From: an uncultured Gammaproteobacteria bacterium
GTDB lineage: Bacteria > Patescibacteriota > Microgenomatia > UBA8517
DNA length: 64,000 nucleotides
Assembly: GCA_964431555.1 (NCBI GenBank)
Contig: CAYSJW010000031.1
Span: 336-64,335, forward strand
Reading direction: 5' to 3'
The translations under genes and the position numbers were made by a program. This document shows, one piece after another, positions 14,400-61,700 of this stretch. The notes beneath the pieces were generated by a model. The model was not told the origin of the DNA. It saw only the letters and a program-made list of their open reading frames with translations, and did no database searches. Numbering within the stretch: the first letter of the stretch is position 1; each line of letters opens with the position of its first letter.

Positions 14400-17300
14400 A
14401 TGCAACCGGAAAACAATCTATCAATAGAAAATAATATCTTTAAAGAAGACTATCAAGCTAGTGAAAATTTTTTCAAAAAGATACTTTCTAAAATAAAAAA
14501 CATCTTTACTTTAGCTTTCATTAGAATAAAAACAGCCTGGCTGAGTATACCCAAAAAAACTAGGTTTATCATATCCCCGCTGATTATTCTTACACTTGCA
14601 CTACTTATACTCACGTTGGTATCAAAAAAGTTCAAACCCATAGATAGCATAAGGCGAATCACTCAAGAGGATATCATTAAACAATATTCTGAAGGATGGT
14701 CAAAACTTCAAATTCCCCAAAGAGAACCTGCTTTTTTCACTCTTAAACCGCAAACTCAAAGCAGATACGGCATCCTTCCCAAAGAGACATTTACACTAAA
14801 AACTAAAGAAGCTCTTGAGGAATCTTACATAAAAGAGAATTTAAACTCAAATATCCCAATTAAAATTACATCCGTTTCCAGTACCGAATTCAGAATTACA
14901 AGCGAAAAAGTTTTAGGAAATGACGAAATTGTTTCATTTAACTTACCGGTTAAAAACAAGAAAATCAGCAATCATACTTTTGACAGAAACTACGGATGGA
15001 CATTTCAGACTCAAGGCAAATTTAGAGTTACATCCACTATTCCCGGAAACGAGAAAAAGGACGTTCCACTAAATACTGGAATAGAAATTGTCTTCAGTCA
15101 AGATGATTACAAAGACCCGAAAGACTATATTACGATTACACCTGACATTGAATGGAGGGGGGAAAGACATGGAGAAACTTACGCAATCATTCCCATTAAA
15201 AAACTTAAAGCAAAAACAATCTATACAGTAACACTTAAAAAGGGGTTAAATTTGGAATCACGAAACGATCCAATTGGAGAGGATTTTACTTTTTCCTTCC
15301 AGACACAAGAGTTGGCTGATCCTCAAATGACTACAAGATCTCCAAGAATATCTTTAAATGAAAACTTCATACAAGTTTCAACAAATGAACAACCACCAGC
15401 TGTCAGTGTCTACACATCAAATTGGAAGAACGATTTAAGTCTTAAAACAAAAATCTATAAATTTCCAAACAGCACTCTATTTATCGAATCTAGAAAAAAA
15501 ATAGATGAAGCATCTTCAAATTGGTGGTCATATTTTGCAGAAGACCAAGAAATTTCAACCGAAAACTTAGCCAAAGTTGCTGAAATGGATCTCAAACTCC
15601 AAGAAAAGGATAATGTTGACTACATCCAACTTCCAGAAACTCTGCCTGAAGGCATGTATCTTGTCCAATTTTGGTATGAAGACGGTAAAAAACTCGAGCA
15701 GCTCTGGCTTCAATCAACAAATATTTCCGGATATATATCCGTAGGACGAAAACAAACACTTGTCTGGGTAAATGATGTTGCATCGGGAGAACCGGTAAAA
15801 AGCGCTCAGATAATACCTATTGGAACTAGTTTAAATTATTCAACAAGTGACAATGGAATTGCCGTCTTCTCAACTCCTCAAATTTTTTACGACAAACTAA
15901 TTCATTATATTAAAGTAGCTTCCGATAAAGGCGAGTTAATTTTACCCGTAAATTCGCTTAAAGGATATACCAAACCACAAGAAAAAAATTCCAATGATTA
16001 CTGGTCCTATCTTTACCACGAAAGACGTCTTTATAAACCGGAAGACACAGTTTATTTCTGGGGAGTAATAAAAGAAAGAGACACCGGTCTTATTCCCTCA
16101 AATATAAAAGTAAGTCTTACCAGCGGATATTACTATTACCCACCAAACGAAAATCTCCCGCTTAAATCCGTGGATATTACTCCCGATACCAATGGTTCTT
16201 TTATTGGTAATATAACATTGACAAATATTCCAAAAGGATATTATGAACTTTCCCTAACAGTGAATGAGGTCTGGATTGAAAGCAGTTACCTTCAAATTAC
16301 AGAGTATGAAAAACCCGAAATGAAAATTGAGGTTACTTCTGAAAAGAAAGCCATTTTTTCAACAGAAAAAAACAACTTTACTGCAAAAGTAAGCTTTTAC
16401 GACGAAACCCCAGCAAAAGGGGTTCCTCTAAACATATATAAATCGTTATACTCAAGTGGAGATAAAATTGAATTAAAAACTGACGCAAAAGGAGAAATAA
16501 AATACACTTATCAACCTCAATACGAAAAAGAAAGCAGTAATTACTCATATTATCCACGATATGAAAGTATAACAATTAGTCCTGCGCTAGCGGAGGAATC
16601 CAACATTGAAGGTTTTGGAAGCGTTTACGTTTATGGTTCAAAGCTGATGATCACATCAAAATCCAAACAAGAAGGGAATAAGGCATATCTTTCCGCAACA
16701 GTGAATAAAGTCAACTTAGATAACATAAATAAAGGAATCTCATCTGATGTAAAAGGAGATATTATTCCCAATAAAGAAGTCAGTATGAATATTACAAAAA
16801 CATGGTGGGAGAAAATTGAAGAAGGAACTTATTATGATTTCATCGAAAAAACCACCAGACCTTCCTATAAATATCAAAGACACGACGAAAAAATTGTTGA
16901 CACCAAATTAAAAACAAACGGAAATGGGGAAATTTCATTCGAGTTTAACATGGAAAATGATAAGTCCTATCATTTAATCTTGTCTACTAGTGATGAGGAT
17001 AATCACAAAACTTACGCGAATGAATATTACTATTACCATAAAGGTGATCAAGACTATTCTTTTTATAATGAGTCATATGAGTCCAGATATTCTGGTCTTA
17101 CTTTAGATAAGAAAGAAAACACTTACTCCGTAGGAGAAGATGTTAACTTAAGCATTAAACTAAAAGGTGAAAACTTCCCTGACAATGAAAAAAATAGATT
17201 CCTTTTTATATTAGCCCAAAGAGGAAATCAAGACTTTTTCGTTGAAGAAGGACCAAAATTCAGTTTTACCTTCGAGAAAAAACACATACCCGCTATCTAT

Positions 17301-19643
17301 GCAGCAGCCGTGATCTTTACCGGAAAACACTACCAAATTGTAAGTCATTACTGTTCCTGGGATTGGGCGTGTTCGTATAATTACAATTATTATAATTACT
17401 TCCCTTCTCTGGCAATTTATTATAAAAACAGCGATAGCAAATTAGAATTAGAGTTATCCTCAGACAAAGAAAAATACAAACCGGGAGATAACGCAAAAAT
17501 ATCCGTTTCTGTTAAAAAAGACGGTCAATTTGTTTCCAATGTACAAGTTAATTTAGTCTTAGTTGACCTTGCACTGGAAGCAATAGGAGGAGTTAAAAAA
17601 CCTTCAATTTTAGGTAGTCTTTATAGACCAGTTCCCGCTGAAATCTACTACGAGTATTACTCTCATAAACCATTCTTTCCGTATCCCCCAGAAGCTGAAC
17701 GTGGAGGAGGAGGAGGGGGAGATTACAGAGAAATCTTTAAAGACACGCCTTTTTTTGGATCAGCAAAAACAAATGAAGAAGGCATTGCCAATTTTGAATT
17801 TAAACTACCTGACAATATAACTACATGGTCAATTTACGCCCAAGGACTTTCAGAAAACTTTGACGCAGGGCAAACTGAAGGTAAAATAATATCGAGCAAA
17901 GAATTCTTTGTCACTAGCAACTTCCCTAAAGAATATCTGCAAAAAGACATAAGTTTCATAACGGGAAACGGGTTCGGAAACGCCATAGAGCAAAACCAAA
18001 CAATTTCCTATGAAGTAACGATATTAAAAGGCGATAATCAAATAGATAAAAAATCCGGCGAAGGAAAGACACTGAAAGACAAATCATTCCAACTTCCCTA
18101 CTTACAAACAGGCGAATATAGGGCTTGGCTGAAGGGAACCGCAAATAATCTTGTTGACGGAGTCGTCTATCCTTTTAAGGTAATCGAATCAAGGCTGGAT
18201 TTGCAAATGAACAAAAAGTACAAAATCGAAAAGGGAAACTCACTCGAGAGTATAAGCATCCCAGCCTTAAATAGTAAAAAACCTGTGAGACTTATCTTAA
18301 GTGACATTGGCAGAGGACAATATTACCTCCAGCTTTTCACTTTTTGCAATCTATACAGCAATCGTATTGAGAAAAGATTGGCAAAATCAAAAGCTAATTC
18401 TTTAATTTTAGAAAAATTTAACGAACAACCCTGTAAGGTAAGAAGTGAGGATTTAGTTGTTTATCAAAATTATGATGGTGGTATCTCGCAAGTTCCCTGG
18501 GGAGGAAGTGTACTTGAAACAACAGTCTGGGCAGTTTTAGTTGACCCAAACGCCTTTGATAAAGAAAAACTCACAAAATTCTTTGAAGGAAAATTAAATA
18601 ATAATCAAGGGGGAGACATCCAGAAAATATATTCACTATGGGGACTAACTCTTTTAGGCAAACCACATATAAATGAACTACTTACATTGGCTCAAAATTC
18701 AAAAGAATTTCAGGAAAAGATAATAAGCGCCTTGGCTTTGGCAAGCATCGGTGAAATAGAAATTCCCAGAGAGATTTATTATGACTTATTAGCAGATTTT
18801 GCTTACACGAATAAACCCTATATCCGCATTCAAACTCCCCTTAATAACAACAAAACCGTTGATGAATATGTCAAAAATACAGGTTTAATGCTTCTTTTAG
18901 GAAGCATGGTTGAAAAGGAATACAACGAGGGATTATATCTCTATATTAGAGATTATCAAAATCAAGTTGAAGACATAGTTATCGACCTTGGTAAAATCGC
19001 ATTTATCAGCGAAGAGTTAAGTAAACTCCCCGCTGAGGATACTCAAATAATTTTCAAATCCGCTTCCCGCGAAGAGTTAATTGATCTTTCAAAAGGGATG
19101 AGTAAAAGTATATTACTTCTTGAAGGAGAAATTGACACGACAAAATTAACTATCAATTCAGGCAAGGCCGAAGTTTTAGTTAATTATTTTGTTACCCCTG
19201 ATATCTTTAATCAAATTACTCAAGATAACAGACTTGAAATAAAAAGAGAGTATAAAAAAGTTAAAGGAGAAGGGAACACCATTAATCCGGGAGATATAGT
19301 TGAAATAAAAGTAAGTTTTGGTCTAGATTCAAAAGAAGCGCCACTTGGAAGTTACACAATAACAGATCACCTACCCTCAGGTTTAACATATATCAAAAAC
19401 CCCATAATCTACGGACTTGAAAAAAAGGGCTGGGCTGAAGAGGAAACAAATAACGTAATTAAATACAATTTCTACAATTCAACTTGGTGGCAAAAATACA
19501 GTGAAAGATTCTTCACTTATTATGCCAGAGCAACAGCAGTTGGAACATATGTTGCCGAACCTTGTATAATACAATCTAACTTGGACTTATCTGTAATCAA
19601 AAGTACATCAGAAGAAAAAGTTACAATAGAAAGCAAAAATTAA
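14400..19643 (+). CDS. Large protein of the alpha-2-macroglobulin family, of the thioester-less bacterial MagD/YfaS type. It has an N-terminal TM anchor and is 1747 aa.
   Basis: A TM helix lies at about aa 55-75. The A2M-domain signature FKDTPFFGSAKTNEEGIANFEFKLPDNITTWSIYAQGLSE matches FxETAFFxPxLxTDxxGxxxFxFxLPDSLTxWR. The downstream motif YQNYDGGISQVPWGGSVLETTVWAVLV matches the A2M TED-like motif YQxxDGsFxxW...WLTA. No CxEQ thioester motif was found. Confidence 0.6.
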   Translation: MQPENNLSIENNIFKEDYQASENFFKKILSKIKNIFTLAFIRIKTAWLSIPKKTRFIISPLIILTLALLILTLVSKKFKPIDSIRRITQEDIIKQYSEGWSKLQIPQREPAFFTLKPQTQSRYGILPKETFTLKTKEALEESYIKENLNSNIPIKITSVSSTEFRITSEKVLGNDEIVSFNLPVKNKKISNHTFDRNYGWTFQTQGKFRVTSTIPGNEKKDVPLNTGIEIVFSQDDYKDPKDYITITPDIEWRGERHGETYAIIPIKKLKAKTIYTVTLKKGLNLESRNDPIGEDFTFSFQTQELADPQMTTRSPRISLNENFIQVSTNEQPPAVSVYTSNWKNDLSLKTKIYKFPNSTLFIESRKKIDEASSNWWSYFAEDQEISTENLAKVAEMDLKLQEKDNVDYIQLPETLPEGMYLVQFWYEDGKKLEQLWLQSTNISGYISVGRKQTLVWVNDVASGEPVKSAQIIPIGTSLNYSTSDNGIAVFSTPQIFYDKLIHYIKVASDKGELILPVNSLKGYTKPQEKNSNDYWSYLYHERRLYKPEDTVYFWGVIKERDTGLIPSNIKVSLTSGYYYYPPNENLPLKSVDITPDTNGSFIGNITLTNIPKGYYELSLTVNEVWIESSYLQITEYEKPEMKIEVTSEKKAIFSTEKNNFTAKVSFYDETPAKGVPLNIYKSLYSSGDKIELKTDAKGEIKYTYQPQYEKESSNYSYYPRYESITISPALAEESNIEGFGSVYVYGSKLMITSKSKQEGNKAYLSATVNKVNLDNINKGISSDVKGDIIPNKEVSMNITKTWWEKIEEGTYYDFIEKTTRPSYKYQRHDEKIVDTKLKTNGNGEISFEFNMENDKSYHLILSTSDEDNHKTYANEYYYYHKGDQDYSFYNESYESRYSGLTLDKKENTYSVGEDVNLSIKLKGENFPDNEKNRFLFILAQRGNQDFFVEEGPKFSFTFEKKHIPAIYAAAVIFTGKHYQIVSHYCSWDWACSYNYNYYNYFPSLAIYYKNSDSKLELELSSDKEKYKPGDNAKISVSVKKDGQFVSNVQVNLVLVDLALEAIGGVKKPSILGSLYRPVPAEIYYEYYSHKPFFPYPPEAERGGGGGGDYREIFKDTPFFGSAKTNEEGIANFEFKLPDNITTWSIYAQGLSENFDAGQTEGKIISSKEFFVTSNFPKEYLQKDISFITGNGFGNAIEQNQTISYEVTILKGDNQIDKKSGEGKTLKDKSFQLPYLQTGEYRAWLKGTANNLVDGVVYPFKVIESRLDLQMNKKYKIEKGNSLESISIPALNSKKPVRLILSDIGRGQYYLQLFTFCNLYSNRIEKRLAKSKANSLILEKFNEQPCKVRSEDLVVYQNYDGGISQVPWGGSVLETTVWAVLVDPNAFDKEKLTKFFEGKLNNNQGGDIQKIYSLWGLTLLGKPHINELLTLAQNSKEFQEKIISALALASIGEIEIPREIYYDLLADFAYTNKPYIRIQTPLNNNKTVDEYVKNTGLMLLLGSMVEKEYNEGLYLYIRDYQNQVEDIVIDLGKIAFISEELSKLPAEDTQIIFKSASREELIDLSKGMSKSILLLEGEIDTTKLTINSGKAEVLVNYFVTPDIFNQITQDNRLEIKREYKKVKGEGNTINPGDIVEIKVSFGLDSKEAPLGSYTITDHLPSGLTYIKNPIIYGLEKKGWAEEETNNVIKYNFYNSTWWQKYSERFFTYYARATAVGTYVAEPCIIQSNLDLSVIKSTSEEKVTIESKN

Positions 19644-28918: not shown

Positions 28919-29977
28919 ATGGCATCTCTTACCGAAATTTCAATAATCTCACGCAAAATTATCCGCTACTCCATATATACAGTAATCCTGATTATCATTG
29001 CTAGGTTTTCAATAAACATAGGAGGAAAAATTTACAAAATTCTATTTCCCCCAAAACCAGAACCTCCCACTGTTTCCTTTGGCAAGCTTTCGGCCATGCC
29101 CTTTCCAGAAAGACCAAAGTATGATTTCAAATACAAATTAGAACTACCGGAAGGCAAGCTCCCCATATTTCCTGACAGAGCAGAGGTTTACAAAATGCCT
29201 AAACCTCAATCAAATATCAAGGTATTAGACAATGCTAAAACTAAAGCTCAAAGTTTGGGCTTTGATCCGAATGGAAGACTTCTGGATGAAAAAATACCGA
29301 ATGTTTACATCTTCTCCAAAAAAGGACTTCCTTCCAGTTTAACCATGAATATAATAACCGGATTATTCTCAATCAGCTATAACCTGGAGGATGATCCTTT
29401 GGTTTTAAGAGATATTCCACCTTCCGCAGAAGCGGCCATTGCTCAAGCACTCAACTTTTTAAATGCTGGAGGACTTTTGAATGATGACCTAAGAAACGGA
29501 AAACCAACCCACCTATATCTCAAGGTCGAAGGTGGCAAATTTATTCCTGCTGTCTCATTATCGGATGCACAAATAACAAAAGTTAATATTTTCAGAAAAG
29601 CCTATGGTAAGGATGGCAATCTGGTTGCTGTGACTCCAAAAATGCCCCAGGCAAATATTTGGTTTATTATTTCCGGCGGGCGTGGAAAGCAAATCATAGC
29701 CGGAGAATACCATTACTATCCAGTCGACAAAAATAATCCCGCCACCTATCCGATAATAACTTCAGATCAAGCCTGGGAAGAATTAACTAAAAACAATGCA
29801 TTTATAGCCAATCCCGGAGAAAATCCAGACGGAAATATTACCATAAGAAAAGTTTACTTGGGTTACTACGATCCCGGGCAGTACTCAGAATATTACCAAC
29901 CTGTTGTAGTTTTTGAGGGAGACAATGACTTTTATGCTTACGTGCCAGCTGTCACCAGTGAATATTATCCAAAATAA
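28919..29977 (+). CDS. Membrane-anchored extracytoplasmic protein, hypothetical.
   Basis: An N-terminal TM helix IYTVILIIIARFSI. The rest is Pro/Tyr-rich with no motif I recognise. Confidence 0.35.
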   Translation: MASLTEISIISRKIIRYSIYTVILIIIARFSINIGGKIYKILFPPKPEPPTVSFGKLSAMPFPERPKYDFKYKLELPEGKLPIFPDRAEVYKMPKPQSNIKVLDNAKTKAQSLGFDPNGRLLDEKIPNVYIFSKKGLPSSLTMNIITGLFSISYNLEDDPLVLRDIPPSAEAAIAQALNFLNAGGLLNDDLRNGKPTHLYLKVEGGKFIPAVSLSDAQITKVNIFRKAYGKDGNLVAVTPKMPQANIWFIISGGRGKQIIAGEYHYYPVDKNNPATYPIITSDQAWEELTKNNAFIANPGENPDGNITIRKVYLGYYDPGQYSEYYQPVVVFEGDNDFYAYVPAVTSEYYPK

Positions 29978-29989
29978 TTCATTAAGTTT

Positions 29990-30943
29990 CTAATCTTCAT
30001 CCCACGAATAATTTTTAAAAACCCAATCGATTATCTTTTTGGTATCACCAAATCTGTCTTGGCTATTTAAAACCACGACAATAATCTTTCTTCCATTCCT
30101 ATCCAAAAAGGTGACCAAATTTTCTTTTGCATTTTCCGTCCAACCGGTTTTTACCCCAAGAACACCTTCCACCTCACCAATAAGCTTATTAATATTTTTT
30201 AACCTATGAGCAATTTCCGCATTATAACTTCCCACAATAATTTCTTTTGTCCCAACAACATCCCTAAAAAAATTATTCTTCATAGCATAATCGGTAATCT
30301 TTGTTAAATCAAAAGCGGTAGTATACTGCATTTCCCCATCAAAACCAGAAGGGTTCTCAAAAAAAGTATTCTCCAAACCCATTTCCTCAACCTTCAAATT
30401 CATAGCCTTAACAAAAGATTGCTTCCCTCCAGGATAACTACTAGCTAAAACTTCCGCTGCATCATTTGCACTATAAACCAAAAGACCGTATATCAGATTT
30501 CTAACAGAAATTTGCTCGCCGGGAATTAAGTTCATCTTCTGGCCTTCCACATTTAATTCCGGAACAGTCAGAATACTATCCAAAGAATAATAATCCAAAG
30601 CAACTAAAGCGGTAACTATTTTTGTCGTCGAGGCGGGGAGAAGTCTAATTGAGGAGTTCTTTTCATACAAAACAAATCTAGATTCTACATCCGTAACCAA
30701 AACACTGAAAGCAGATATTTCCGGAAAGGGATCTTCTCCTTTTAATTTGGGAATTGGAACAGATTTATTATAAGACTTAACCATTACGGTTTTTTCCCGA
30801 TATTTGGCAGATTTATGTTTTCCTAAAGCAAAAACACTAATCATTAATGTCGCCTGAGCAATCAGAATAAAGGAGAAAATGCAGAGATAAAAAAAGTGTT
30901 TCCGCATTAAAAAATTATCATAAAATCTATTCCTCTTTTTCAT
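29990..30943 (-). CDS. D-alanyl-D-alanine carboxypeptidase (PBP5/DacA-like, peptidase S11).
   Basis: SxxK ASTTKIVTALVAL, SxN YSANDAA and KTG GVKTGWT. I used the start at MKKRNRF; the ORF-track start at 31015 overlaps aspS by 89 nt. Confidence 0.8.
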   Translation of the reverse strand: MKKRNRFYDNFLMRKHFFYLCIFSFILIAQATLMISVFALGKHKSAKYREKTVMVKSYNKSVPIPKLKGEDPFPEISAFSVLVTDVESRFVLYEKNSSIRLLPASTTKIVTALVALDYYSLDSILTVPELNVEGQKMNLIPGEQISVRNLIYGLLVYSANDAAEVLASSYPGGKQSFVKAMNLKVEEMGLENTFFENPSGFDGEMQYTTAFDLTKITDYAMKNNFFRDVVGTKEIIVGSYNAEIAHRLKNINKLIGEVEGVLGVKTGWTENAKENLVTFLDRNGRKIIVVVLNSQDRFGDTKKIIDWVFKNYSWDED

Positions 30944-32276
30944 TTTTTCGGGATAAAAGAAAATCAACACGTTCCATATCTCTTGGAAAAAGAGAAGCTT
31001 CCCTGACATTACCAAGCCCGAGAATTTGCATGGTCATTCTTTCCAAACCAAAAGAAAATCCTCCTTCTGGGGGCATCCCGTATTTAAATGCTTGAAGATA
31101 CATTTCAAAGTCCTCGGGATCCATACCTTTTTCTTTTATCGTCTTAACAAGCTGATCATAGTTATTAATTCTTTGACTTCCGCTTAAAATTTCTAAACCC
31201 TTATAGATCAAATCGTAGCTTAATGAATATTCAGGATTATTTGGATCCGGCATTGTATAAAAAGCTCGCTTTTTCGTAGGATAATGGGTCACAGTAACTA
31301 AATCCGAACCAAATTCCTCCAAAGCCCATTTACTTAACTCCCTTTCATCAAACGGGTCCAAGTCCAATTCATTTGTATGGTCAATACCAGTTCTTTCTTT
31401 TATTAATTTTTGTGCATCTCTCATCTTTATACGAGGTATTTTCATACCAACTTTAGGTTCTTCAACATGGAACTCTTTTAAAATATCTTTATTCCTTTCA
31501 GCTACATACTTTAAAATCTCGCCTCCAATATACTCTAACGCATCTAAAAGATCATTAAAGTTCACAAATCCAAATTCACAATCCATTTGTATTGATTCTG
31601 AAAGATGTCTGGTTGTAACCGAGGGTTCAGATCTATAAGCATGAGAGACAAGGTACACCCTTTCGAAAACAGGAACTAAAATTTGCTTATAAAGTTGAGG
31701 ACTCTGTATAAGATAAGCTTGATTATCATAATATTTAATCTTGAAAACTTCAGCTCCTCCTTCGGTAGCAGAAGCTGATATTGTTGGAACAAAAACTTCT
31801 GTACATCCCAATTCTTGTGACGCTCTTCTAAATCCCTCCATAATCGCTTCCTGCACTTTAAAAATCTTCGCAACCTTTGGATGTCTTAATGTGAGAGCCC
31901 TGTAATCCAAAAGTGTAGGAAGCTGAAGTCCCAAATCTGGTTTGGCCATATCAAAAGGAAGTACATCTGCTTTTGCTAACAAATTCACTTTATCAGCCTC
32001 GATTTCAATAGTTCCCGTTTCTATATCTTTGTTGACCAAATTATCTGGGCGCTTTTTAACCAAACCCTCTATTTCAACTACAGATTCCTGCGTAAGGTCA
32101 GAAAATAAACCCTCATATCCTACTATTTGAATTAATCCACTTCTATCACGTAAGTCAATAAAAGAAACTTTTCCATGATCTCTCTTAGTACAAATCCAAC
32201 CACCAATTTTAACTTTTTGGTCAATTTTATTTAAAGTTTCCCTGATTAAGATTCTTTTCATATTCGCCAAAACCAA
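30927..32276 (-). CDS. aspS: Aspartate--tRNA ligase, archaeal/class IIb type, possibly non-discriminating.
   Basis: An N-terminal OB fold GGWICTKRDHGKVSFIDLRDRSGLIQIV, motif 2 and motif 3 YGMPPEGGFSFGLERMTM. The length of 449 aa fits the archaeal-type AspRS. Confidence 0.75.
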   Translation of the reverse strand: MVLANMKRILIRETLNKIDQKVKIGGWICTKRDHGKVSFIDLRDRSGLIQIVGYEGLFSDLTQESVVEIEGLVKKRPDNLVNKDIETGTIEIEADKVNLLAKADVLPFDMAKPDLGLQLPTLLDYRALTLRHPKVAKIFKVQEAIMEGFRRASQELGCTEVFVPTISASATEGGAEVFKIKYYDNQAYLIQSPQLYKQILVPVFERVYLVSHAYRSEPSVTTRHLSESIQMDCEFGFVNFNDLLDALEYIGGEILKYVAERNKDILKEFHVEEPKVGMKIPRIKMRDAQKLIKERTGIDHTNELDLDPFDERELSKWALEEFGSDLVTVTHYPTKKRAFYTMPDPNNPEYSLSYDLIYKGLEILSGSQRINNYDQLVKTIKEKGMDPEDFEMYLQAFKYGMPPEGGFSFGLERMTMQILGLGNVREASLFPRDMERVDFLLSRKNEKEE

Positions 32277-32319: not shown

Positions 32320-32574
32320 TTAAGAGATTAGCCTTAAATAAAACTTCCTAAGAATATTCAAACAAAGCATAAATTCCTCTTCCCTAAGCTTCCAATATTT
32401 GGGATTATTGCTTGAATACTTCCTAACTAAAAAAACCAATTCAATTTCTCTTAAAAGCCCAGGATATAAAATCTTTAAATCTAAAAAAATTCTTTTGGCA
32501 TTGGCAATTTTTCCCTTTGCCAAAATCATATATCTAACACACCTAAAAATATGCTTAAGAACATCTTTTTGCAA
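32320..32574 (-). CDS. Small basic protein, hypothetical, third gene of the kinase/NTase operon.
   Basis: 84 aa, starting 4 nt after the NTase stop. No motif was recognised; a HEPN assignment was considered but is not supported. Confidence 0.3.
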   Translation of the reverse strand: MQKDVLKHIFRCVRYMILAKGKIANAKRIFLDLKILYPGLLREIELVFLVRKYSSNNPKYWKLREEEFMLCLNILRKFYLRLIS

Positions 32575-32577
32575 CCT

Positions 32578-33048
32578 TTAATCTATCTTTATACCCTTAA
32601 TTGCAAACTTCCTATATTCCGTCAAAATTTTCTCTAACTTGACCACAACACTTTGATAAACCAAATCCTTATCTATCTTAATATCGCTAAAGGGGTTTTT
32701 TCCATACAAAACAATAGATCTTTGAAGTTCCCAGATTAAAAAATGTCCATTACCTTTATGACTTGCAAAAGATTCGTCCTTAAATTTTAACTCATCCAAC
32801 CACTTGACACTCAAAGATAACCCTAAAGGCCTATACTTGGCATAAACATTTTTTAAGTAAATAAAATCTCCTAAAGAATAATTTTTTAAAACAATCCAAA
32901 GATCCACGTCGCTTTCAGGGTTTTCAAAACCTGCCGAATAACTACCAAAAAGCAAAATACACTCTACGCGCTTTTTCGTAAAAAACTTAAAAACATCATT
33001 GATAAATTCGTCAATAAAACCAATCTTTTCAAAAGTACTCTTTTTCAT
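32578..33048 (-). CDS. Minimal nucleotidyltransferase of the Pol-beta superfamily (MNT/KNTase-like).
   Basis: LLFGSYSAGFENPESDVDLWIV matches GSxaxGxxxxxSDxDL. Its start forms an ATGA overlap with the stop of the upstream kinase-like gene, confirmed on the sequence at 33045-33048. Confidence 0.7.
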   Translation of the reverse strand: MKKSTFEKIGFIDEFINDVFKFFTKKRVECILLFGSYSAGFENPESDVDLWIVLKNYSLGDFIYLKNVYAKYRPLGLSLSVKWLDELKFKDESFASHKGNGHFLIWELQRSIVLYGKNPFSDIKIDKDLVYQSVVVKLEKILTEYRKFAIKGIKID

Positions 33049-33605
33049 ATCTTTCCCAAAATATCCCAAAAAAGATCATCCAGTTTATTCTCTCCATCAA
33101 GAATCACTGAATTGGAAGGTAAGTATCTCGAATACAAATCATTCAAAATAGCTATTTCTTCTATGTTAAAAAGTGAGACTTTTCCTCTTAATAAATTCCT
33201 TTCTCGAGAAATTTCAGGTTTCAAAATCAAAAAAAACACTTGATCTATAGAGGGTAAAAACCTCTTAAGAATGATTAGTAAAAAATTATAATCATGGTTG
33301 CGGATAACTTTCTTTATCCTGTAAAACTCTATATAAACCAGACGATCCCAAAAACCTCTATCCAAAAAAAGATAGTCCAATTTTATATCCGAATTTACAA
33401 CTTTCAAAATTCTATTTCCAAGTGTAAAAACGGTCCAAAGCTGCTGGTCAAAAACGCAATCTTTCCTATCCTTAAAGCTACAACTTCGAAACCCTTCATT
33501 GATAATTTCAGAAACCATACCTTTTTCCTTTAGATAAAAATCCAGCTTCTTGATTAGAGCTGATTTACCTGATTTTGACGTTCCAGTAAACTCAATTATT
33601 TTCAT
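33045..33605 (-). CDS. P-loop kinase-like protein, resembling deoxynucleoside or nucleotide kinases.
   Basis: A Walker A motif at the N-terminus, FTGTSKSGKSAL, and a DRG/DR-type motif FLDRGFWDRLVYIEF as in the dNK/dCK family. 186 aa. Confidence 0.5.
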   Translation of the reverse strand: MKIIEFTGTSKSGKSALIKKLDFYLKEKGMVSEIINEGFRSCSFKDRKDCVFDQQLWTVFTLGNRILKVVNSDIKLDYLFLDRGFWDRLVYIEFYRIKKVIRNHDYNFLLIILKRFLPSIDQVFFLILKPEISRERNLLRGKVSLFNIEEIAILNDLYSRYLPSNSVILDGENKLDDLFWDILGKI

Positions 33606-33628: not shown

Positions 33629-35119
33629 TTACGATTTTCTTCTCAAATATTGATTTATCTTCTGTCTAGCCAAACTTGTAACAACGAAATTTAACCAATC
33701 GGGATTGGGAGGTCTGGGATTTTTAGATTTAACAATCTCAACAACCTGTCCGCTTGTCAACTTAAAATCCAAGGGGACAATCTTTCCATCAACTTTAGCC
33801 GTTTTAATATACTCGGCAAGATTGGTATGCACCGCGTAAGCAAAATCAATTGGAGTTGCATCCTCTGGAAGATCAAAGACATCTCCCTTGGGAGAAAAGA
33901 CAAAAATTCTTTTGGAAAACGTATCCAATTTGACAGTTTGTAAATATTCCTTAGCATCTTTTACTCGATTTTGCCATTCCGCAAGTTGCTTAACCCAACT
34001 TAACTTATCAACAATGGTTACAACATGGTTACTTAGGTCTCCTGATATTTTTGATGCTCTCTTACTTTTTACTTCACTATAAGCCCAATGGGCTGCAATA
34101 CCAAATTCAGATTGTCTATGCATTTCCAAAGTTCTTATCTGTATTTCTAGAATTTTTCCTCCCGGCCCAAAAACTTTGGTGTGAATAGATTGATAACCAT
34201 TAGGTTTAGGTTGAGCTATAAAATCAGAAATTCCCAAATGAGGAACCGGTTTATAACATTTATGAACTACCCCAAGGCTAATATAACATTCAGGAATTGT
34301 AACAACGATTATTCTTAATGCTACAATATCATATATTTTCGAAAAATCCCACTTTACATTCGGTCTTTCCAGTTTCTTCCAAAGTGAAAAAAGGTGCTTT
34401 TTCCTACCGTCTATCCTCGCCTTAATCCCTTCTTCAGCTAAACTCCTTAAAAGATTTCTCTTAACCCTTTTTATATATTCTTCCGCTTTCCTATAATAAA
34501 TTTTAGATTCACTTTTTACCCTCTTAAATTCTTCAGGATAAATGTAGGGAAAAGCTAAATCATCCAATTCCGCTTTTATTTCTCCCATCCCAAGCCTTTC
34601 CGCTAGTGGTGCGTAAATCTCAATGGTTTCAGAGGAAATTCTTATCCTTTTCTCTTTCGGTAAAGCGTAAAGAGTACGCATGTTATGAAGTCTATCGGCT
34701 AGTTTAACAAGAACAACTCTTAGATCCTTTGCCATAGCAAAAAACATTTTCCTCAAGTTTTCAACAAATTCCTCCTCTTTGCTTCCGCGAAGTTTTATAT
34801 TAGAAACTTTAGTCACACCATCCACCAAAAAAGAAACATCCTCGCCAAACCTTTCCTCAATGTCCTTTAAGGTCGCTGCTCCGTCTTCAACACTATCATG
34901 TAAAAGCCCTGCCAAAATCGCGCTTAAATCAAGTTTCCATGAGGCTAAAATTTTGGCTGTCTCTAGCCCATGCATAACGTAAGGCTCCCCCGTTAATCTC
35001 CTCTGTCCAGAATGAGCCAGTTTCGCAAAATCCCAAGCTCTTTTCAATGAAGCCAAAACTTTTTCCTTATCTTCCCAAGACTCAAAAATTTTTAGAAAAT
35101 CTCTAAATTCTTTTTCCAT
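33629..35119 (-). CDS. rel: (p)ppGpp synthetase/hydrolase of the RelA/SpoT family. It has HD, synthetase and TGS domains and no ACT domain.
   Basis: HD motif LHDSVEDG, synthetase motifs YQSIHTKV and GIAAHWAY, and a C-terminal TGS domain. It is 496 aa. Confidence 0.9.
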   Translation of the reverse strand: MEKEFRDFLKIFESWEDKEKVLASLKRAWDFAKLAHSGQRRLTGEPYVMHGLETAKILASWKLDLSAILAGLLHDSVEDGAATLKDIEERFGEDVSFLVDGVTKVSNIKLRGSKEEEFVENLRKMFFAMAKDLRVVLVKLADRLHNMRTLYALPKEKRIRISSETIEIYAPLAERLGMGEIKAELDDLAFPYIYPEEFKRVKSESKIYYRKAEEYIKRVKRNLLRSLAEEGIKARIDGRKKHLFSLWKKLERPNVKWDFSKIYDIVALRIIVVTIPECYISLGVVHKCYKPVPHLGISDFIAQPKPNGYQSIHTKVFGPGGKILEIQIRTLEMHRQSEFGIAAHWAYSEVKSKRASKISGDLSNHVVTIVDKLSWVKQLAEWQNRVKDAKEYLQTVKLDTFSKRIFVFSPKGDVFDLPEDATPIDFAYAVHTNLAEYIKTAKVDGKIVPLDFKLTSGQVVEIVKSKNPRPPNPDWLNFVVTSLARQKINQYLRRKS

Positions 35120-39283: not shown

Positions 39284-40612
39284 TTATCTATCCCTATCTC
39301 TAATAAATACTCTTAATAAATTCCTGCTGACTACTATTCCTGTAAATAAACTTATAGCAATCCCCATCGCCAAAGTCACCGCAAAACCTCTCACCGATCC
39401 TGAAGTGTGTAAAAAATTAAAATCCAAAGGATTAGCCAAAACAAACGCTGTAACTAATGTTGCAATATTCGCATCTCTTATCGAATCCCAAGCTCTGCCA
39501 AAAGAAACTTCCAACGCATCGGCTAAATTTCTTTTGTATTTCTCTTCTTTAAAACGCTCAAAAATCAAAATGTTAGAATCCACAGCCATTCCTACAGACA
39601 AAAGAAATCCCGCGATTCCCGGTAAAGTAAGAACAACAGGTATAAGTTTATACAAGGCAAGAGTTAATACTCCAAAAATTATAAGTGCAATATCAGCAAC
39701 CAAACCTAATTTACCATAACTTAATAACATAAAAACCATAACCATAACCAACCCTACTAAACCTGCCTTTATACTCCTGGCAATAGACTCCGTGCCCAAA
39801 ATTGCACCAATAGTTCTTTGTTCAACCAATTTAACAGGTGCCGGAAGAGCACCAGCATTAAGCTGGATTGATAAATTTTTAGCTTCCTTTAAGTCGAAAT
39901 CGCCACTTATTTGAGCAGAACCCCCCGAAATTTTTTCCTGAACCACTGGAGCCGAAACTAACTCCTGATCTAAAAGAATAGCTAAAGGTTTTCCAATATT
40001 CTTTTCAGAAATCATTTCAAATTTTTTGGCACCCTCTTCATTAAATTGCAAAAGAACAACCGGTTTACCTGTGGACTTGTCAAAACCTACATCAGAACTT
40101 TTTAAATCCGCACCTGTCAAGTCAGTCAAATTCAAACCCGGTTTATCCTCTTCTCCTACTTCGGCAAAGTAAAGTTGCGCAGTTTTTCCGATAATCTCTA
40201 TTGCTTCCTGTGTTTCCTTAACACCCGGAAGTTCCACAATCACTCTGTCCTTGTCCTGAAAAGATGATGTTTGAACATTAGGCTCGCTAACACCAAAAAG
40301 ATTAACTCTTTTTTCCATAACCTTTCTTACGGCATCTACAGCAACCTTTCTCCTTCCCTCCTCAATACCAGTAGTATCCACTTCAAAAACCAAATGAGAT
40401 CCACCCGCGAGATCAAGTCCTAAAACCAAATCAAAATTCTTCTTGATATAAAATTTACCCAGATGAAAATCAAGGTCATACCTTTTAAAAACTTTATCTA
40501 TCTTGAAACTTTTAAGGCTCAATTTTACTGGAATTTCTTTAGGCAGACTTATGTAAGTAGAGGTTAAGGAAAGTAAAAGTATAAGGAAAAGTTTTAAGAA
40601 GTTTTTACGCAT
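39284..40612 (-). CDS. secD: Protein translocase subunit SecD.
   Basis: A periplasmic domain followed by a C-terminal six-TM RND-like core (FERFKEEKYKRNLADALEVSF). Confidence 0.9.
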   Translation of the reverse strand: MRKNFLKLFLILLLSLTSTYISLPKEIPVKLSLKSFKIDKVFKRYDLDFHLGKFYIKKNFDLVLGLDLAGGSHLVFEVDTTGIEEGRRKVAVDAVRKVMEKRVNLFGVSEPNVQTSSFQDKDRVIVELPGVKETQEAIEIIGKTAQLYFAEVGEEDKPGLNLTDLTGADLKSSDVGFDKSTGKPVVLLQFNEEGAKKFEMISEKNIGKPLAILLDQELVSAPVVQEKISGGSAQISGDFDLKEAKNLSIQLNAGALPAPVKLVEQRTIGAILGTESIARSIKAGLVGLVMVMVFMLLSYGKLGLVADIALIIFGVLTLALYKLIPVVLTLPGIAGFLLSVGMAVDSNILIFERFKEEKYKRNLADALEVSFGRAWDSIRDANIATLVTAFVLANPLDFNFLHTSGSVRGFAVTLAMGIAISLFTGIVVSRNLLRVFIRDRDR

Positions 40613-41197
40613 TTATGAAACCAATTCTTCTTCATCTCCAATTATCATAATCCTACTACCGGAAAGTATACTTGTCAAAAATGGGTCTCTTCTTTTTTTT
40701 CGAAAGTCAAGCTCTTCTTTACTCATCACCGTGTAGTTAATCTCCTTTCCTCTCTTTGATTCCTCCCGTCTTATCAATGCGGCAAGCTCCGGCAAAACTA
40801 TATCTCCGACAACAAGTATATCTACATCATCATCCCTTTTTCCAGGTTTTCTTCTAACAAATCTTCCTGAAAACATAACGTAACCAACTTTACCTATTTT
40901 ATTCCTATTTTGCCATATTTCTGCTCCCAAACCTTTTGTTTTCGCAACCAAAGAAAGTAAATCGTTGAAAAAAGGATAATCTTGTCTAGGCCAGTAATAC
41001 AACCTATTTCCTCGTTTTTCACTTTTTAAAATTCCAGCCCCTTCCAACTTTTCAAGCTCTCTCCTTACGGCGTTTATTTCCTCTTTTACTTCCCTTACAA
41101 TCCCTCTAACATGGTACATCTCTGTAATATCAGAAAAGAAAAGCTCTAAAATCTTTATCCTTACTTTGGAAGTGATTATATCCTCTAAACTAGCCAT
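40613..41197 (-). CDS. Winged-helix DNA-binding protein with a C-terminal nucleotidyltransferase-like region, hypothetical.
   Basis: An N-terminal wHTH (KVRIKILELFF...VRGIVREV). The C-terminus reads DDDVDILVVGD. It lies immediately upstream of secD. Confidence 0.35.
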   Translation of the reverse strand: MASLEDIITSKVRIKILELFFSDITEMYHVRGIVREVKEEINAVRRELEKLEGAGILKSEKRGNRLYYWPRQDYPFFNDLLSLVAKTKGLGAEIWQNRNKIGKVGYVMFSGRFVRRKPGKRDDDVDILVVGDIVLPELAALIRREESKRGKEINYTVMSKEELDFRKKRRDPFLTSILSGSRIMIIGDEEELVS

Positions 41198-58778: not shown

Positions 58779-61700
58779 CTAAGGAGAAACTATACTGACA
58801 ATGGTATTACTTCCATAATAATTTCCCCAGGGAGTAGTTTGAGGAATACCTAAAATCCAATAAACATTCTTCGAGGAATTTGAAGGTATAACTTGCGATT
58901 TGGGAATATCTATATCCAAGGGTACAAGATCTTTTGAAAGCAAATTACCCTCACCATAAATAAAACTCGAAGAATCATATTCCTGGTTATCAACATTTAT
59001 CTTATCCCCAAGACAATCCGGATAATCTGTACACATATCATCCCCTGAAATACGCAAATCCAAAGTTCTATTTCCATGATTTTCAACCGGAGTTTGTTTT
59101 AGACCTGACGTCTTAGTGGGAAGAATTTTACCATAAGCAATAGATGATGAAGTACTTATTGTAAGAAGACTATTTACATCAACTACATCGGAAGGGCTGA
59201 TATTTTCCCCTGATTCGCTTTTAACATCTGTTGCCTTAATCCAAGCCAACCAATATTCAGATGAGTAATTCCCCGAATCTGTTGCATCAGAAAAAAAAGC
59301 TAAAGATACCTCACAGGTTGCCGTACAGGAATTTCCCGAACAACCTGAAAGAGTACAAGATGAATCATAATAACAGTTATTTAAATCCTCAACACACTCT
59401 TTCCCAACTCCCGACCTATATACCTTGCCTTCAACAACATCTATATCCGAAAATCCATTCTCGTCAGAAACAGTTGCTGTAAAATTCACTGCTTTGCTAC
59501 TATTTGGTGTCAAATCAATATCTAAACCTGAATTCAAAACTACATTTACCACTTCTGGTGCCGCATTAATGGTCACAACTCCTTCTGAATAATCACTTAC
59601 CTGGGGATTAATACCGTCACTGGTTATACCATATATATAATAAGTTCCAGGGGAAACTCCTGTTGTATCCCAATCACAAGTTTGATTTGAACCTTCAGGC
59701 TGGTCCTGGCAGCTTGAAATCGCAGTTCCGTCAAGACCGCTACCATCTGTGTCATAATAAAAATCGGCATAAACAGTATTATCACCATCACTAAGGTCAT
59801 ACTGGATTGTAAAAACAGATCCTTCAGAAATTACATCGTTAACTCCATCTGGTTCATCAATATTAAGAGAAGGCGGCTGATTTACCAAAGGAGTATATTG
59901 GATAACAATAATTCCCTGTTTCCCTGAAGAACCGGAACCTGCAGAATAACCCTTTCCCGAACCTCCCCCTCCTGCGCCGCCCGCACCATATTGACCAGAT
60001 GTGCCACCCCCGCCTCCGTTGTTATTTCGGCTTCCCCCGCCTCCTCCACCGCCACCACCTCCAGAACCGTGAGTAGAATCCCACTCGCTCCCATTACCTC
60101 CCGCCCCACCCGAAGAACTTGCCGGACCACCGCTTCCTCCGATTCCACCATAAGAACCGTCTCCTCTTCCTCCACTCCCTCCAGCACCTCCCGTATTTCC
60201 TGAAGCGGCAGAACCATTATTACCCGCATTTCCAGATGCATAAAGTCCACCAGCTCCACCGCCACCGCCACCCCCTCCACCGGCATTTGTAGAAGCCGCA
60301 CCTCCACTACCACCATTACCTCCTGAATAACCTGAACCAACCGAAGCTACACCCCCGGACCCCCCATTTGTTCCTGAACCTCCACCACCCCCTGTGGCAC
60401 AAACAGACGAGCTAGCACAACTTGAACCGTTGAAGTAAGTTGACCCCCCTGCGCTTCCTACCGAACCACCACTTCCTACTGCCAACGAAACGGAACTATT
60501 GGGAGTTAAATCCAAATTGGTAATTTTTGAATAGCCTCCACCACCCCCTCCTCCTCCGCCAAGACCTCCTGATGTTGATGAAGCTGTTCCATTTGCTCCT
60601 CCACCACCCCCGCCAACTACTTCAATAGAATTGTCATTATCATTCCAATCATTGGGTACTGTCCAACTCGTTCCCGAAGTTATATAAACAGTCGCATCCG
60701 AAGCTAATTGCCACTGACGAGTATCCCTGAAGGTCTGTTGAGCATCCATCGAAATCATCTCTAAAGGTCCAAGCAAAAAAACAAAGGGGGATAGTTTTGG
60801 AGCCTGATATTCATAAGCAAGTACTTTTTTCTCTTTTGCAGTAACATCCAAAATCCAAGAAATAAACTTTTCATTTTTTTCTTCAGTAATTGTGTAGTTA
60901 CCTTCTTTTATTTGAAAATCTTGCGGAACTTTTTCAATGAGGGTTCCTGAAAAACCAGACTTAGATTCCACTACAATCTTCATCGTATAAGAAGATTTAT
61001 AAGGATTTATACGCGTTGCTCCCACTCTTTCCAGCGAAAAAACAGGATCTTCCTCTACAGTAAACGCACCATTTATCGAAAAACCATTGGCAAGGTTGGT
61101 TAGAAAAAAATGATAGTTGCCAATCTCCTTCAGTTCATAATAAACAAAATAATCAGGTTTATCGGTGACATTATTATTTAGACAATAATCACTTATGGAG
61201 ATAGACCCATCCTCAACATAAAAACTTTTTACCTCCCCATTTGGCTTAACAATCAAAAGTTCCAAGTTGCTATCACAAACCGTGTGTCCATCATCCCCTA
61301 AAGAAGCCATCTGAATATAGGCGGTTTCACCTTTTGCAAAAACTGTTTTATTCAAATTAAGAGCCAGCACTCCATACAAAAAAGTCTGCTCAACAAAATT
61401 ACCCGTTTCATTATCTCTGACAGTAACAACATGTTTACCTGGTTTTATATTGCTAATCGGCACCTGCAATGTCAGATTTTTTAACTCAATATCCTTCTCA
61501 AGTTCCACATTCTTGTCAATGTCTTCAACAATCAGTTTTAAATTCGAGTCTTTTTGTGGTTTGTCAATTTTTTCATTCGACAATCCTAGTATTTTTTGCA
61601 ATACCCCCGATTGAGTTGAACCAACTGTCTCCTCAAAAACAACTTCCTCAATCTTGACTTCAGGCACTTCATCTGCTCTAAAATGAACTTTCGGCATTGA

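Follow-up and report, generated by a model that had tools for sequence, protein, structure and literature searches.

Between rel and aspS, the 64,000-nucleotide (nt) stretch analysed here, hereafter the window (contig CAYSJW010000031.1, positions 336 to 64,335), carries three consecutive open reading frames (ORFs) on the minus strand, for a kinase-like protein, a nucleotidyltransferase (NTase) and a small basic protein. The locus raises the question of whether these form a compact system of three genes, possibly one of toxin-antitoxin (TA) or defence type, as a sequence-only reading of the stretch had proposed. Our reading, which we hold with a probability of roughly 0.6, is that this is a translationally coupled accessory cassette of two genes in a Woesebacteria-type genome, that its NTase gene has been broken by a nonsense codon, and that the cassette is eroding. 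What looks like a three-component system would thus come down to a cassette of two genes, one of them with a nonsense mutation, and the case for a novel small partner or for a TA or defence trio falls away. The features on which this reading draws are the following.

33629..35119, minus strand: rel (RelA/SpoT homologue, RSH; domains HD_4, RelA_SpoT and TGS), the upstream flank, 23 nt from the kinase start
33045..33605, minus strand: gene for a P-loop kinase of predicted deoxynucleoside kinase (dNK)/thymidylate kinase (TMPK) fold, 186 amino acids (aa), TGA stop at 33045-33047, called from the ORF and its motifs
33045..33048, minus strand: ATGA stop/start overlap of kinase and NTase; the plus strand reads tcat
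32581..33048, minus strand: NTase ORF, 156 aa from the ATG at 33048, with DNA polymerase beta (Pol-beta) motifs
32578..32580, minus strand: TAA, read here as premature; Gln (CAA) in homologues P0002 and P0003, Leu in homologue P0007
32320..32577, minus strand: 3' remainder of the NTase gene, 85 codons and a stop, 35-49% identical to the C-terminal parts of fused homologues
30927..32261, minus strand: aspS (archaeal-like type, 444 aa), the downstream flank, 58 nt past the NTase remnant

The product of the kinase ORF begins MKIIEFTGTSKSGKSA and carries the motifs FTGTSKSGKS and LDRGFWDR, while the NTase ORF contains FGSYSAGFENPESDVDLW, with the motifs FGSYSAGF...SDVDLW. Inside the 3' remainder, an ORF of 84 codons opens with a TTG at 32574, 3 nt past the NTase TAA, and ends at the stop at 32320-22; its product is basic (K+R 18, D+E 7, pI about 10). 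As far as these features go, the earlier description was accurate: it had listed the kinase ORF with FTGTSKSGKS and DRGFWDR, the Pol-beta motifs GSxxxG...SDVDL, the ATGA overlap and a basic 84-aa ORF that follows the NTase stop after 3 nt. The kinase/NTase module has a G+C content of 0.30-0.31, versus 0.35-0.37 for its flanks. A promoter and terminator scan of the locus gave counts at chance level and no operon boundary.

One nucleotidyltransferase gene, apparently broken at codon 157

Translation of 32320-33069 in frame reads ...KGIKID*RLQKDVLKH..., meaning that the NTase and the small ORF lie in one frame with a single TAA between them. We searched for homologues with the two joined as one query, and later with a profile over 1.8 billion representatives. 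The joined query retrieved P0002 (244 aa, 52% identity across 96% of the query) and P0003 (a gene call of 311 aa, with a true length of about 245 aa), to which the profile search added P0007 (241 aa). All three of these full-length close homologues are single polypeptides that span both pieces, and in the alignment the similarity continues unbroken through the column of the TAA, where P0002 and P0003 have Gln and P0007 has Leu. None of the homologues has a separate small gene. The sole database entry for the small ORF, P0009, comes from its own genome, and is the remnant as a gene caller's product of 69 aa from an internal ATG. Because of the shared frame with a single TAA, and because P0002, P0003 and P0007 are fused, the two ORFs read as one NTase gene with a nonsense codon at position 157, with the '84-aa basic protein' as its severed tail. 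Most simply, the stop would have originated from a single change of CAA to TAA. Three independent genes are ruled out by the common frame and the fused homologues, and the proposed operon of three genes falls with them: the third gene co-occurs with the others nowhere else, while the pairing of kinase and NTase does recur, as described below.

Two public assemblies match the window at 100% identity, L006 over 20.6 kb and L007 over 11 kb; the TAA is present in L006, while L007 ends short of it. Being fully identical, both may share their underlying data with the window. The same TAA is carried by L031, a Logan assembly of run SRR5216256 that differs from the window by one single-nucleotide polymorphism (SNP) over 2252 nt, at window position 33316, within the kinase. 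Since the TAA is identical in L006 and in L031, which differs by one SNP elsewhere, we take it as a real nonsense codon in the population. A sequencing or assembly error at this position is made unlikely by the same two assemblies.

What would the break do to the enzyme? Mapped onto the predicted structure of P0002, the stop falls in the loop between helices 123-146 and 153-173. By analogy with AadA, the 156-aa product retains the catalytic carboxylates and the equivalent of helix 7, and loses the helix with the family-invariant D, KH, R and RY residues. These conserved residues lie in the remnant, which comprises four helices of the C-terminal bundle. In AadA, ATP is bound in the interdomain cleft, where the C-terminal domain holds its phosphates and the greater part of the acceptor, and the N-domain and helix 7 move as one rigid body (PMC6065190). 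Because the truncated product, at 156 aa, is without most of the domain that has this role in AadA, it is most likely inactive alone, which would make the gene a recent pseudogene.

An NTase core followed by a separate small helical protein resembles the MNT-HEPN pairs (MntA/HepT) of type VII TA modules, in which a Pol-beta minimal-NTase core is likewise followed by a helical partner, and in the window the two are indeed separate ORFs. The C-domains of kanamycin nucleotidyltransferase (KNTase) type have themselves been classed with HEPN. However, the full-length close homologues of the cassette NTase are fused in 3/3 cases, the separation in the window is due to the nonsense codon, and the MntA model scores 25.4 bits against a cut-off of 60, over 33 residues only. 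We also considered a HEPN partner as such. As had been remarked from the sequence, the 84-aa ORF lacks the Rx4-6H motif, which is absent from the corresponding homologues as well, and the ORF gave no match in Pfam, NCBIfam or PADLOC.

A two-domain nucleotidyltransferase of predicted aminoglycoside nucleotidyltransferase architecture

Two Pfam families pass their cut-offs on the NTase, PF18765 (33.8 bits versus 26.9, E 3.9e-8) and PF01909 (27.7 versus 21). Together with the hG[GS] and [DE]x[DE] motifs, these matches assign the second gene to the Pol-beta superfamily of nucleotidyltransferases, as had been recognised from its motifs. In the AlphaFold2 (AF2) model of the intact homologue P0002, built from an alignment of 47 sequences (pLDDT 94.4, pTM 0.88), five helices follow an N-terminal alpha/beta domain of Pol-beta type. 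In a Foldseek search of the Protein Data Bank (PDB) with this model, the full-length matches were the aminoglycoside nucleotidyltransferases (ANTs) ANT(4')/KNTase (E 5e-7, template modelling (TM) score about 0.43-0.48) and ANT(9) and AadA (E 7e-7 to 7e-5, TM 0.61-0.67), followed by Hailong HalB (E 3e-4 and weaker, TM 0.41-0.46) and, weaker, LinB; MntA matched more weakly and over the N-domain only. At the sequence level, PDB matches were confined to the Pol-beta core, and involved KNTase and a putative NTase (E 3e-4 to 2e-2). The intact gene is thus modelled as encoding a two-domain NTase of about 242 aa with ANT(9)/AadA/ANT(4') architecture. This two-domain single polypeptide is seen in the intact P0002 and P0007, while the polypeptide of the window is broken at codon 157.

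The sequence-only reading had judged the NTase too short for a classical ANT, which holds for the 156-aa fragment and not for the intact protein: at 241-245 aa, the latter is alike in size to ANT(9)/AAD(9), the ANT(3'')(9) AadA and ANT(4')/KNTase (about 240-260 aa), which are also its best structural matches, with E 5e-7 to 3e-5 and TM up to 0.67. The likeness extends to the order of domains, in which a Pol-beta domain with GS and DxD, and with a further carboxylate on the following strand (KWLDEL in the cassette NTase), precedes a C-terminal helical bundle, and to weak sub-threshold profile matches family-wide; for all 47 NTase family members, the matches to curated ANT models are sub-threshold only. 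The differences are as clear. Identity to ANTs is 12-15% and no curated ANT model passed (ANT_9 12.9 bits versus 340, ANT_4p_I 12.3 versus 350), the SHKGNGHF/HGxFF motif and the KH..R..RY helix are specific to the cassette family, and the cassette NTase has a dNK-like kinase partner, an uncultured Patescibacterium as host and, in the window, an interrupted gene.

Distant relatives of the NTase are fused to, or located beside, alpha/beta-hydrolases, NUDIX hydrolases and an S-adenosylmethionine (SAM) methyltransferase, neighbours that befit enzymes of small-molecule modification rather than toxins or immune effectors. No NTase relative was found in the viral contigs searched, nor among GTDB representatives in a genome scan with alignment A1, and a fold search of BFVD returned generic two-domain NTases only.

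Pol-beta NTases also act in anti-phage defence, and the cassette NTase might likewise make a nucleotide or oligonucleotide signal, in the manner of HalB or the CD-NTases, with the kinase sensing or altering nucleotide pools. HalB, an oligodeoxyadenylate synthase, is a two-domain Pol-beta NTase and its structures are among the Foldseek matches, the PADLOC candidate families PDC-S09 and PDC-M05A match the N-domain, and presence of the cassette is patchy (see below). The HalB matches have the lower TM, however, and with the NCBIfam HalB model the NTase reaches 13.6 bits, short of the cut-off of 190. The two PADLOC matches span only the generic Pol-beta core of 40-50 residues, beyond which PADLOC yielded only a weak mad8 match. 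The absence of NTase relatives from viral contigs does not favour a role in defence either, and no effector adjoins the cassette, be it a HalA-like membrane protein, a channel, a nuclease or a TIR/SIR2 domain; its flanks are rel and aspS, and the neighbourhood is not a defence island. We therefore consider a defence function highly improbable.

A divergent kinase of predicted deoxynucleoside kinase fold

The kinase has a conserved Walker A motif (GTSKSGKS), a conserved DRG and a conserved LID-like arginine cluster (SRERNLLRGK). The AF2 model, from seven sequences, reached a pLDDT of 92.0, and its best Foldseek matches in the PDB are the deoxyadenosine kinase (dAK) of Mycoplasma (2jat/2jas), human deoxycytidine kinase (dCK; 1p5z) and Drosophila dNK (Dm-dNK), at E 3e-9 to 1e-8 and TM 0.73-0.78, which bears out the initial impression of a dNK-like P-loop protein. 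TMPKs and the albomycin kinase AbmG follow close behind. On this model, gene 1 is assigned to a divergent kinase of dNK or deoxynucleoside monophosphate (dNMP) kinase fold. Sequence models agree in direction and remain below threshold throughout (Thymidylate_kin 15.8 bits versus 27, DTMP_kinase 16.2 versus 83; thresholds tested for PF01712, PF02223 and TIGR00041), as do further matches to AAA_28 and to a phage 'thymidylate kinase' PHROG. PF01712 and PF02223 do match P0158 and P0159, which are more distant members of the family.

With dAK, dCK, Dm-dNK and TMPK (PF01712, PF02223), the cassette kinase shares the P-loop, a DR-x motif and the LID arginines. It differs in having DRG rather than ERS or DRY, in a conserved GFRxCPFKD that is unique to its family, and in that the position of the dNK catalytic Glu is not conserved. 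In dNKs, this conserved Glu activates the 5'-OH, while in TMPKs an Arg of R-E-P type binds the phosphate of the nucleoside monophosphate (NMP). Since the dNK-type Glu is not conserved in the cassette kinases and an Arg is conserved instead, the acceptor could be either a nucleoside or a nucleotide.

Kinase homologues are 37-45% identical between lineages. Stand-alone distant homologues exist (L012, P0157), and the viral contigs searched contain three kinase relatives, all distant (28-31%). One homologue, P0006, from a 629-nt contig in ENA, ends in ...GRASCRERV, which we take to be a recurring chimeric or artefactual sequence in assemblies; this tail was trimmed before alignment.

Recurrence of the kinase-nucleotidyltransferase pair

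The two genes are found together outside the window as well. In L013, a 190-aa kinase is followed by the intact NTase P0007 with an ATGA overlap, and then by aspS. In L003-L005, the C-terminus of Rel is followed by the kinase P0005 and, with an overlap of 8 nt, by an NTase fragment, and in L001 a kinase fragment overlaps the intact NTase P0002 by 38 nt. The pair thus recurs with overlapping genes in at least four lineages, and at the rel/aspS site wherever the context is visible. The overlapping reading frames argue for co-expression of kinase and NTase. In L002, the NTase P0003 is directly preceded by frameshifted IS1595/ISXO2-like transposase fragments (L002:100-770), into which the 311-aa gene call over-extends. 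This contig ends in 55 nt with which L014, a contig from the same sample that carries the kinase P0156, begins. This suggests that P0003 and P0156 come from one genome rearranged around the IS1595-like fragments, although the shared 55 nt may be repetitive sequence.

Close homologues are very few, in that a search of 5.8 billion clusters yielded only between 3 and 8 sequences for each protein, and a literature search for a dNK and NTase pair in Patescibacteria brought up nothing relevant. A translationally coupled gene pair for a dNK-fold kinase and an ANT-fold NTase is apparently undescribed.

An accessory cassette at the rel/aspS site

Using a neighbouring lineage-specific protein of 352 aa as a probe, we recovered 11 loci from GTDB representatives, most of them labelled Candidatus Woesebacteria. 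The states that bear on the cassette are as follows.

L015, L016, L017, L020, L022: dac-aspS-rel-recJ, with an aspS-rel gap of 28-200 nt and nothing between; empty site
L021 (from the genome of L008): rel-kinase-(350 nt)-aspS; NTase absent
L019, L024: rel absent from the site

The five relatives with an empty site agree with the earlier impression of a module wedged between aspS and rel, and because such sites exist, the cassette is accessory and dispensable. By aspS identity, the window pairs with L016 (69%) and L013 with L015 (84%), so that the closest relatives of both module-bearing genomes are without the module. While aspS and Rel of the window are 53-69% and 56-66% identical to those of relatives, the kinases reach only 37-45% between lineages.

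Two histories could produce this distribution. We saw no integrase gene adjoining the cassette in the window, L008 or L013, where flanking repeats were not searched for. Because the cassette is always located at the same site and no integrase was seen adjoining it, we favour ancient presence with repeated loss rather than several insertions, a picture into which both the locus that has kept the kinase alone and the nonsense allele fit.

That the NTase is the part broken or lost, while the kinase persists, is also what one would expect if the NTase were a toxin, like MenT or TglT, and the upstream kinase its enzymatic antitoxin, like TakA, in a module resembling type VII TA systems; the nonsense mutation and the loss of the NTase alone would then be toxin inactivation, with the antitoxin kept. 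A kinase antitoxin with an NTase toxin has precedent in TakA, which neutralises TglT (PMC7205606). TakA phosphorylates TglT. As in TglT/TakA, a kinase gene and an NTase gene make up one two-gene module, with overlapping stop and start codons and the putative antitoxin first, and the N-domain gives weak matches to MntA models. However, the cassette kinase has a predicted nucleoside/NMP-kinase fold, not a protein-kinase or TakA-like one, and the best full-length structural matches of the NTase are small-molecule ANTs, with MntA matching the N-domain only. The AbiEii/DUF1814 domain of the MenT and TglT type gave no Pfam match at E<=1 and does not occur in the top 50 PDB fold matches. Furthermore, the distant NTase relatives are fused to hydrolases or NUDIX domains, unlike toxins, and in three or more lineages the cassette occupies a fixed chromosomal site and shows no sign of mobility. 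A TA module is thus quite unlikely. The suggestion of a TA or defence system, which the sequence alone had prompted, finds no support in the generic N-domain matches of PADLOC, the housekeeping neighbourhood or the hydrolase, NUDIX and methyltransferase company of the NTase family.

The kinase-only genome (L008/L021) has a different implication as well: the kinase might be an independent nucleotide-salvage enzyme, a dNK or dNMP kinase, with the NTase as a functionally unrelated, co-inherited neighbour. Its dNK/TMPK fold and the stand-alone distant homologues would fit such a role. Against it, the gene overlaps (ATGA, 8 nt, 38 nt) in four lineages argue for coupled expression, the absence of the kinase from five related genomes shows that it is not core, and it evolves faster than aspS and Rel, as the identities given above indicate. 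We regard independent salvage as unlikely.

Several side observations concern the genes that flank the cassette. From the syntenic site, rel is missing in L019, L023, L024 and L025. The Rel/RSH protein of the window (33629-35119, minus strand) is short, at 496 aa, and is without the usual C-terminal regulatory domains. At the same dac-rel/recJ locus, related Woesebacteria carry two types of aspS that are only about 28-33% identical: an archaeal-like type in the window (30927-32261), L013, L015, L016, L017 and L020, and a bacterial type in L008 (6913-8313)/L021, L018, L019, L022 and L024. The pattern resembles in-situ displacement of a gene for an essential aminoacyl-tRNA synthetase.

Erosion of the cassette, or an enzyme in two pieces?

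With the states of the site in view, our reading of an eroding cassette can be weighed as a whole. Wherever its context is visible, the cassette occupies a single chromosomal position: some lineages have it intact, one retains only the kinase, and five relatives lack it. We read it as dispensable and in the course of being lost. As such, the locus could offer a natural series for gene loss in reduced genomes, from intact through nonsense-split and kinase-only to the empty site.

A number of findings sit uneasily with this reading. The remnant has acquired no further stop or frameshift, and changes at sites that are fixed in the homologues amount to 3/24 in the remnant versus 4/50 in the N-terminal part, the sites being few. 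That the remnant shows no excess divergence fits a very recent mutation and a still-functional two-piece enzyme equally. The break coincides with a natural hinge, immediately past the helix that corresponds to helix 7 of AadA, and a TTG follows 3 nt past the stop, so that reinitiation is conceivable. As for the assignment of the genes, identity to ANTs is low and all curated ANT models are far under their cut-offs, while in the kinase E37 is not conserved, leaving no dNK-type Glu base, and R40 of GFRxCPF is invariant in the close family. The link between kinase and NTase is known only within one clade and at one site, so that common descent could account for their being neighbours even if no functional link exists.

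The first of these findings point towards a functional split enzyme, in which the 84-aa piece would be made by termination and reinitiation at the TTG and reassemble with the 156-aa piece, in the way of MNT and HEPN-like partners, leaving the cassette active. The break lies in a loop after the helix whose AadA equivalent moves rigidly with the N-domain, the ORF of the remnant is intact over 84 codons, and the allele also occurs in an assembly with a different SNP, which implies that it persists in the population. However, none of the three full-length close homologues is split, and no usable Shine-Dalgarno sequence is present at the proper distance from the TTG. The internal ATG used by the gene caller (P0009) would delete the conserved D/KH/R/RY helix. 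Furthermore, the NTase is lost in L021 and the whole cassette in five relatives, a trend of decay. An active two-piece enzyme is a possibility that we take seriously without favouring it, and for the allele in the window we keep to an eroding cassette with a broken NTase gene.

A putative role in small-molecule modification

What might the intact cassette do? Both folds are those of enzymes with small-molecule substrates, which are nucleosides or nucleotides for the fold of the kinase and antibiotic hydroxyl groups for that of the NTase. The kinase would phosphorylate a hydroxyl or a phosphate of a nucleoside- or nucleotide-like molecule, and on the same compound or a related one, the intact NTase would attach a nucleotide to a hydroxyl (O-nucleotidylation). 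A compound of nucleoside or aminoglycoside type could in this way be salvaged, activated or detoxified. Because of both folds, the overlapping genes, and the hydrolase, NUDIX and methyltransferase company of the distant NTase relatives, we propose with moderate confidence that the pair would both phosphorylate and nucleotidylate a small molecule, nucleoside-like or otherwise hydroxylated. Should the NTase turn out to modify antibiotics, the ANT resistance enzymes would have in it an environmental relative. The cassette belongs to the poorly understood accessory gene pool of the Patescibacteria.

A bolder and rather doubtful version is that the cassette encodes an undescribed two-step pathway restricted to Woesebacteria/Microgenomates, in which kinase and then NTase act on one nucleoside-like metabolite or antibiotic, and in which the split allele may still be a two-piece enzyme. 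If true, the pathway could either build a compound linked to a nucleotide or inactivate, in two ways, a nucleoside or aminoglycoside toxin derived from a host or competitor.

Other features of the window

The 352-aa protein that served as probe (28919-29977, plus strand) has an N-terminal hydrophobic segment and no Pfam family on record. It is syntenic, at 32-58% identity, in Woesebacteria and a few other Patescibacteria metagenome-assembled genomes (MAGs), which makes it a useful lineage marker. The MAGs of L015, L016, L019 and L020 are titled 'uncultured Gammaproteobacteria bacterium' in TPA_asm records, probably a taxonomic mislabel.

Two very large ORFs are present, of 1747 aa at 14400-19643 (plus strand) and of 1718 aa at 58779-63935 (minus strand). 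At 39284-41197 (minus strand), an ORF of 194 aa with no family on record and secD (442 aa) lie in one frame with a single TAA between them. They are called as separate genes in L006, and represent either another split or a chance adjacency.

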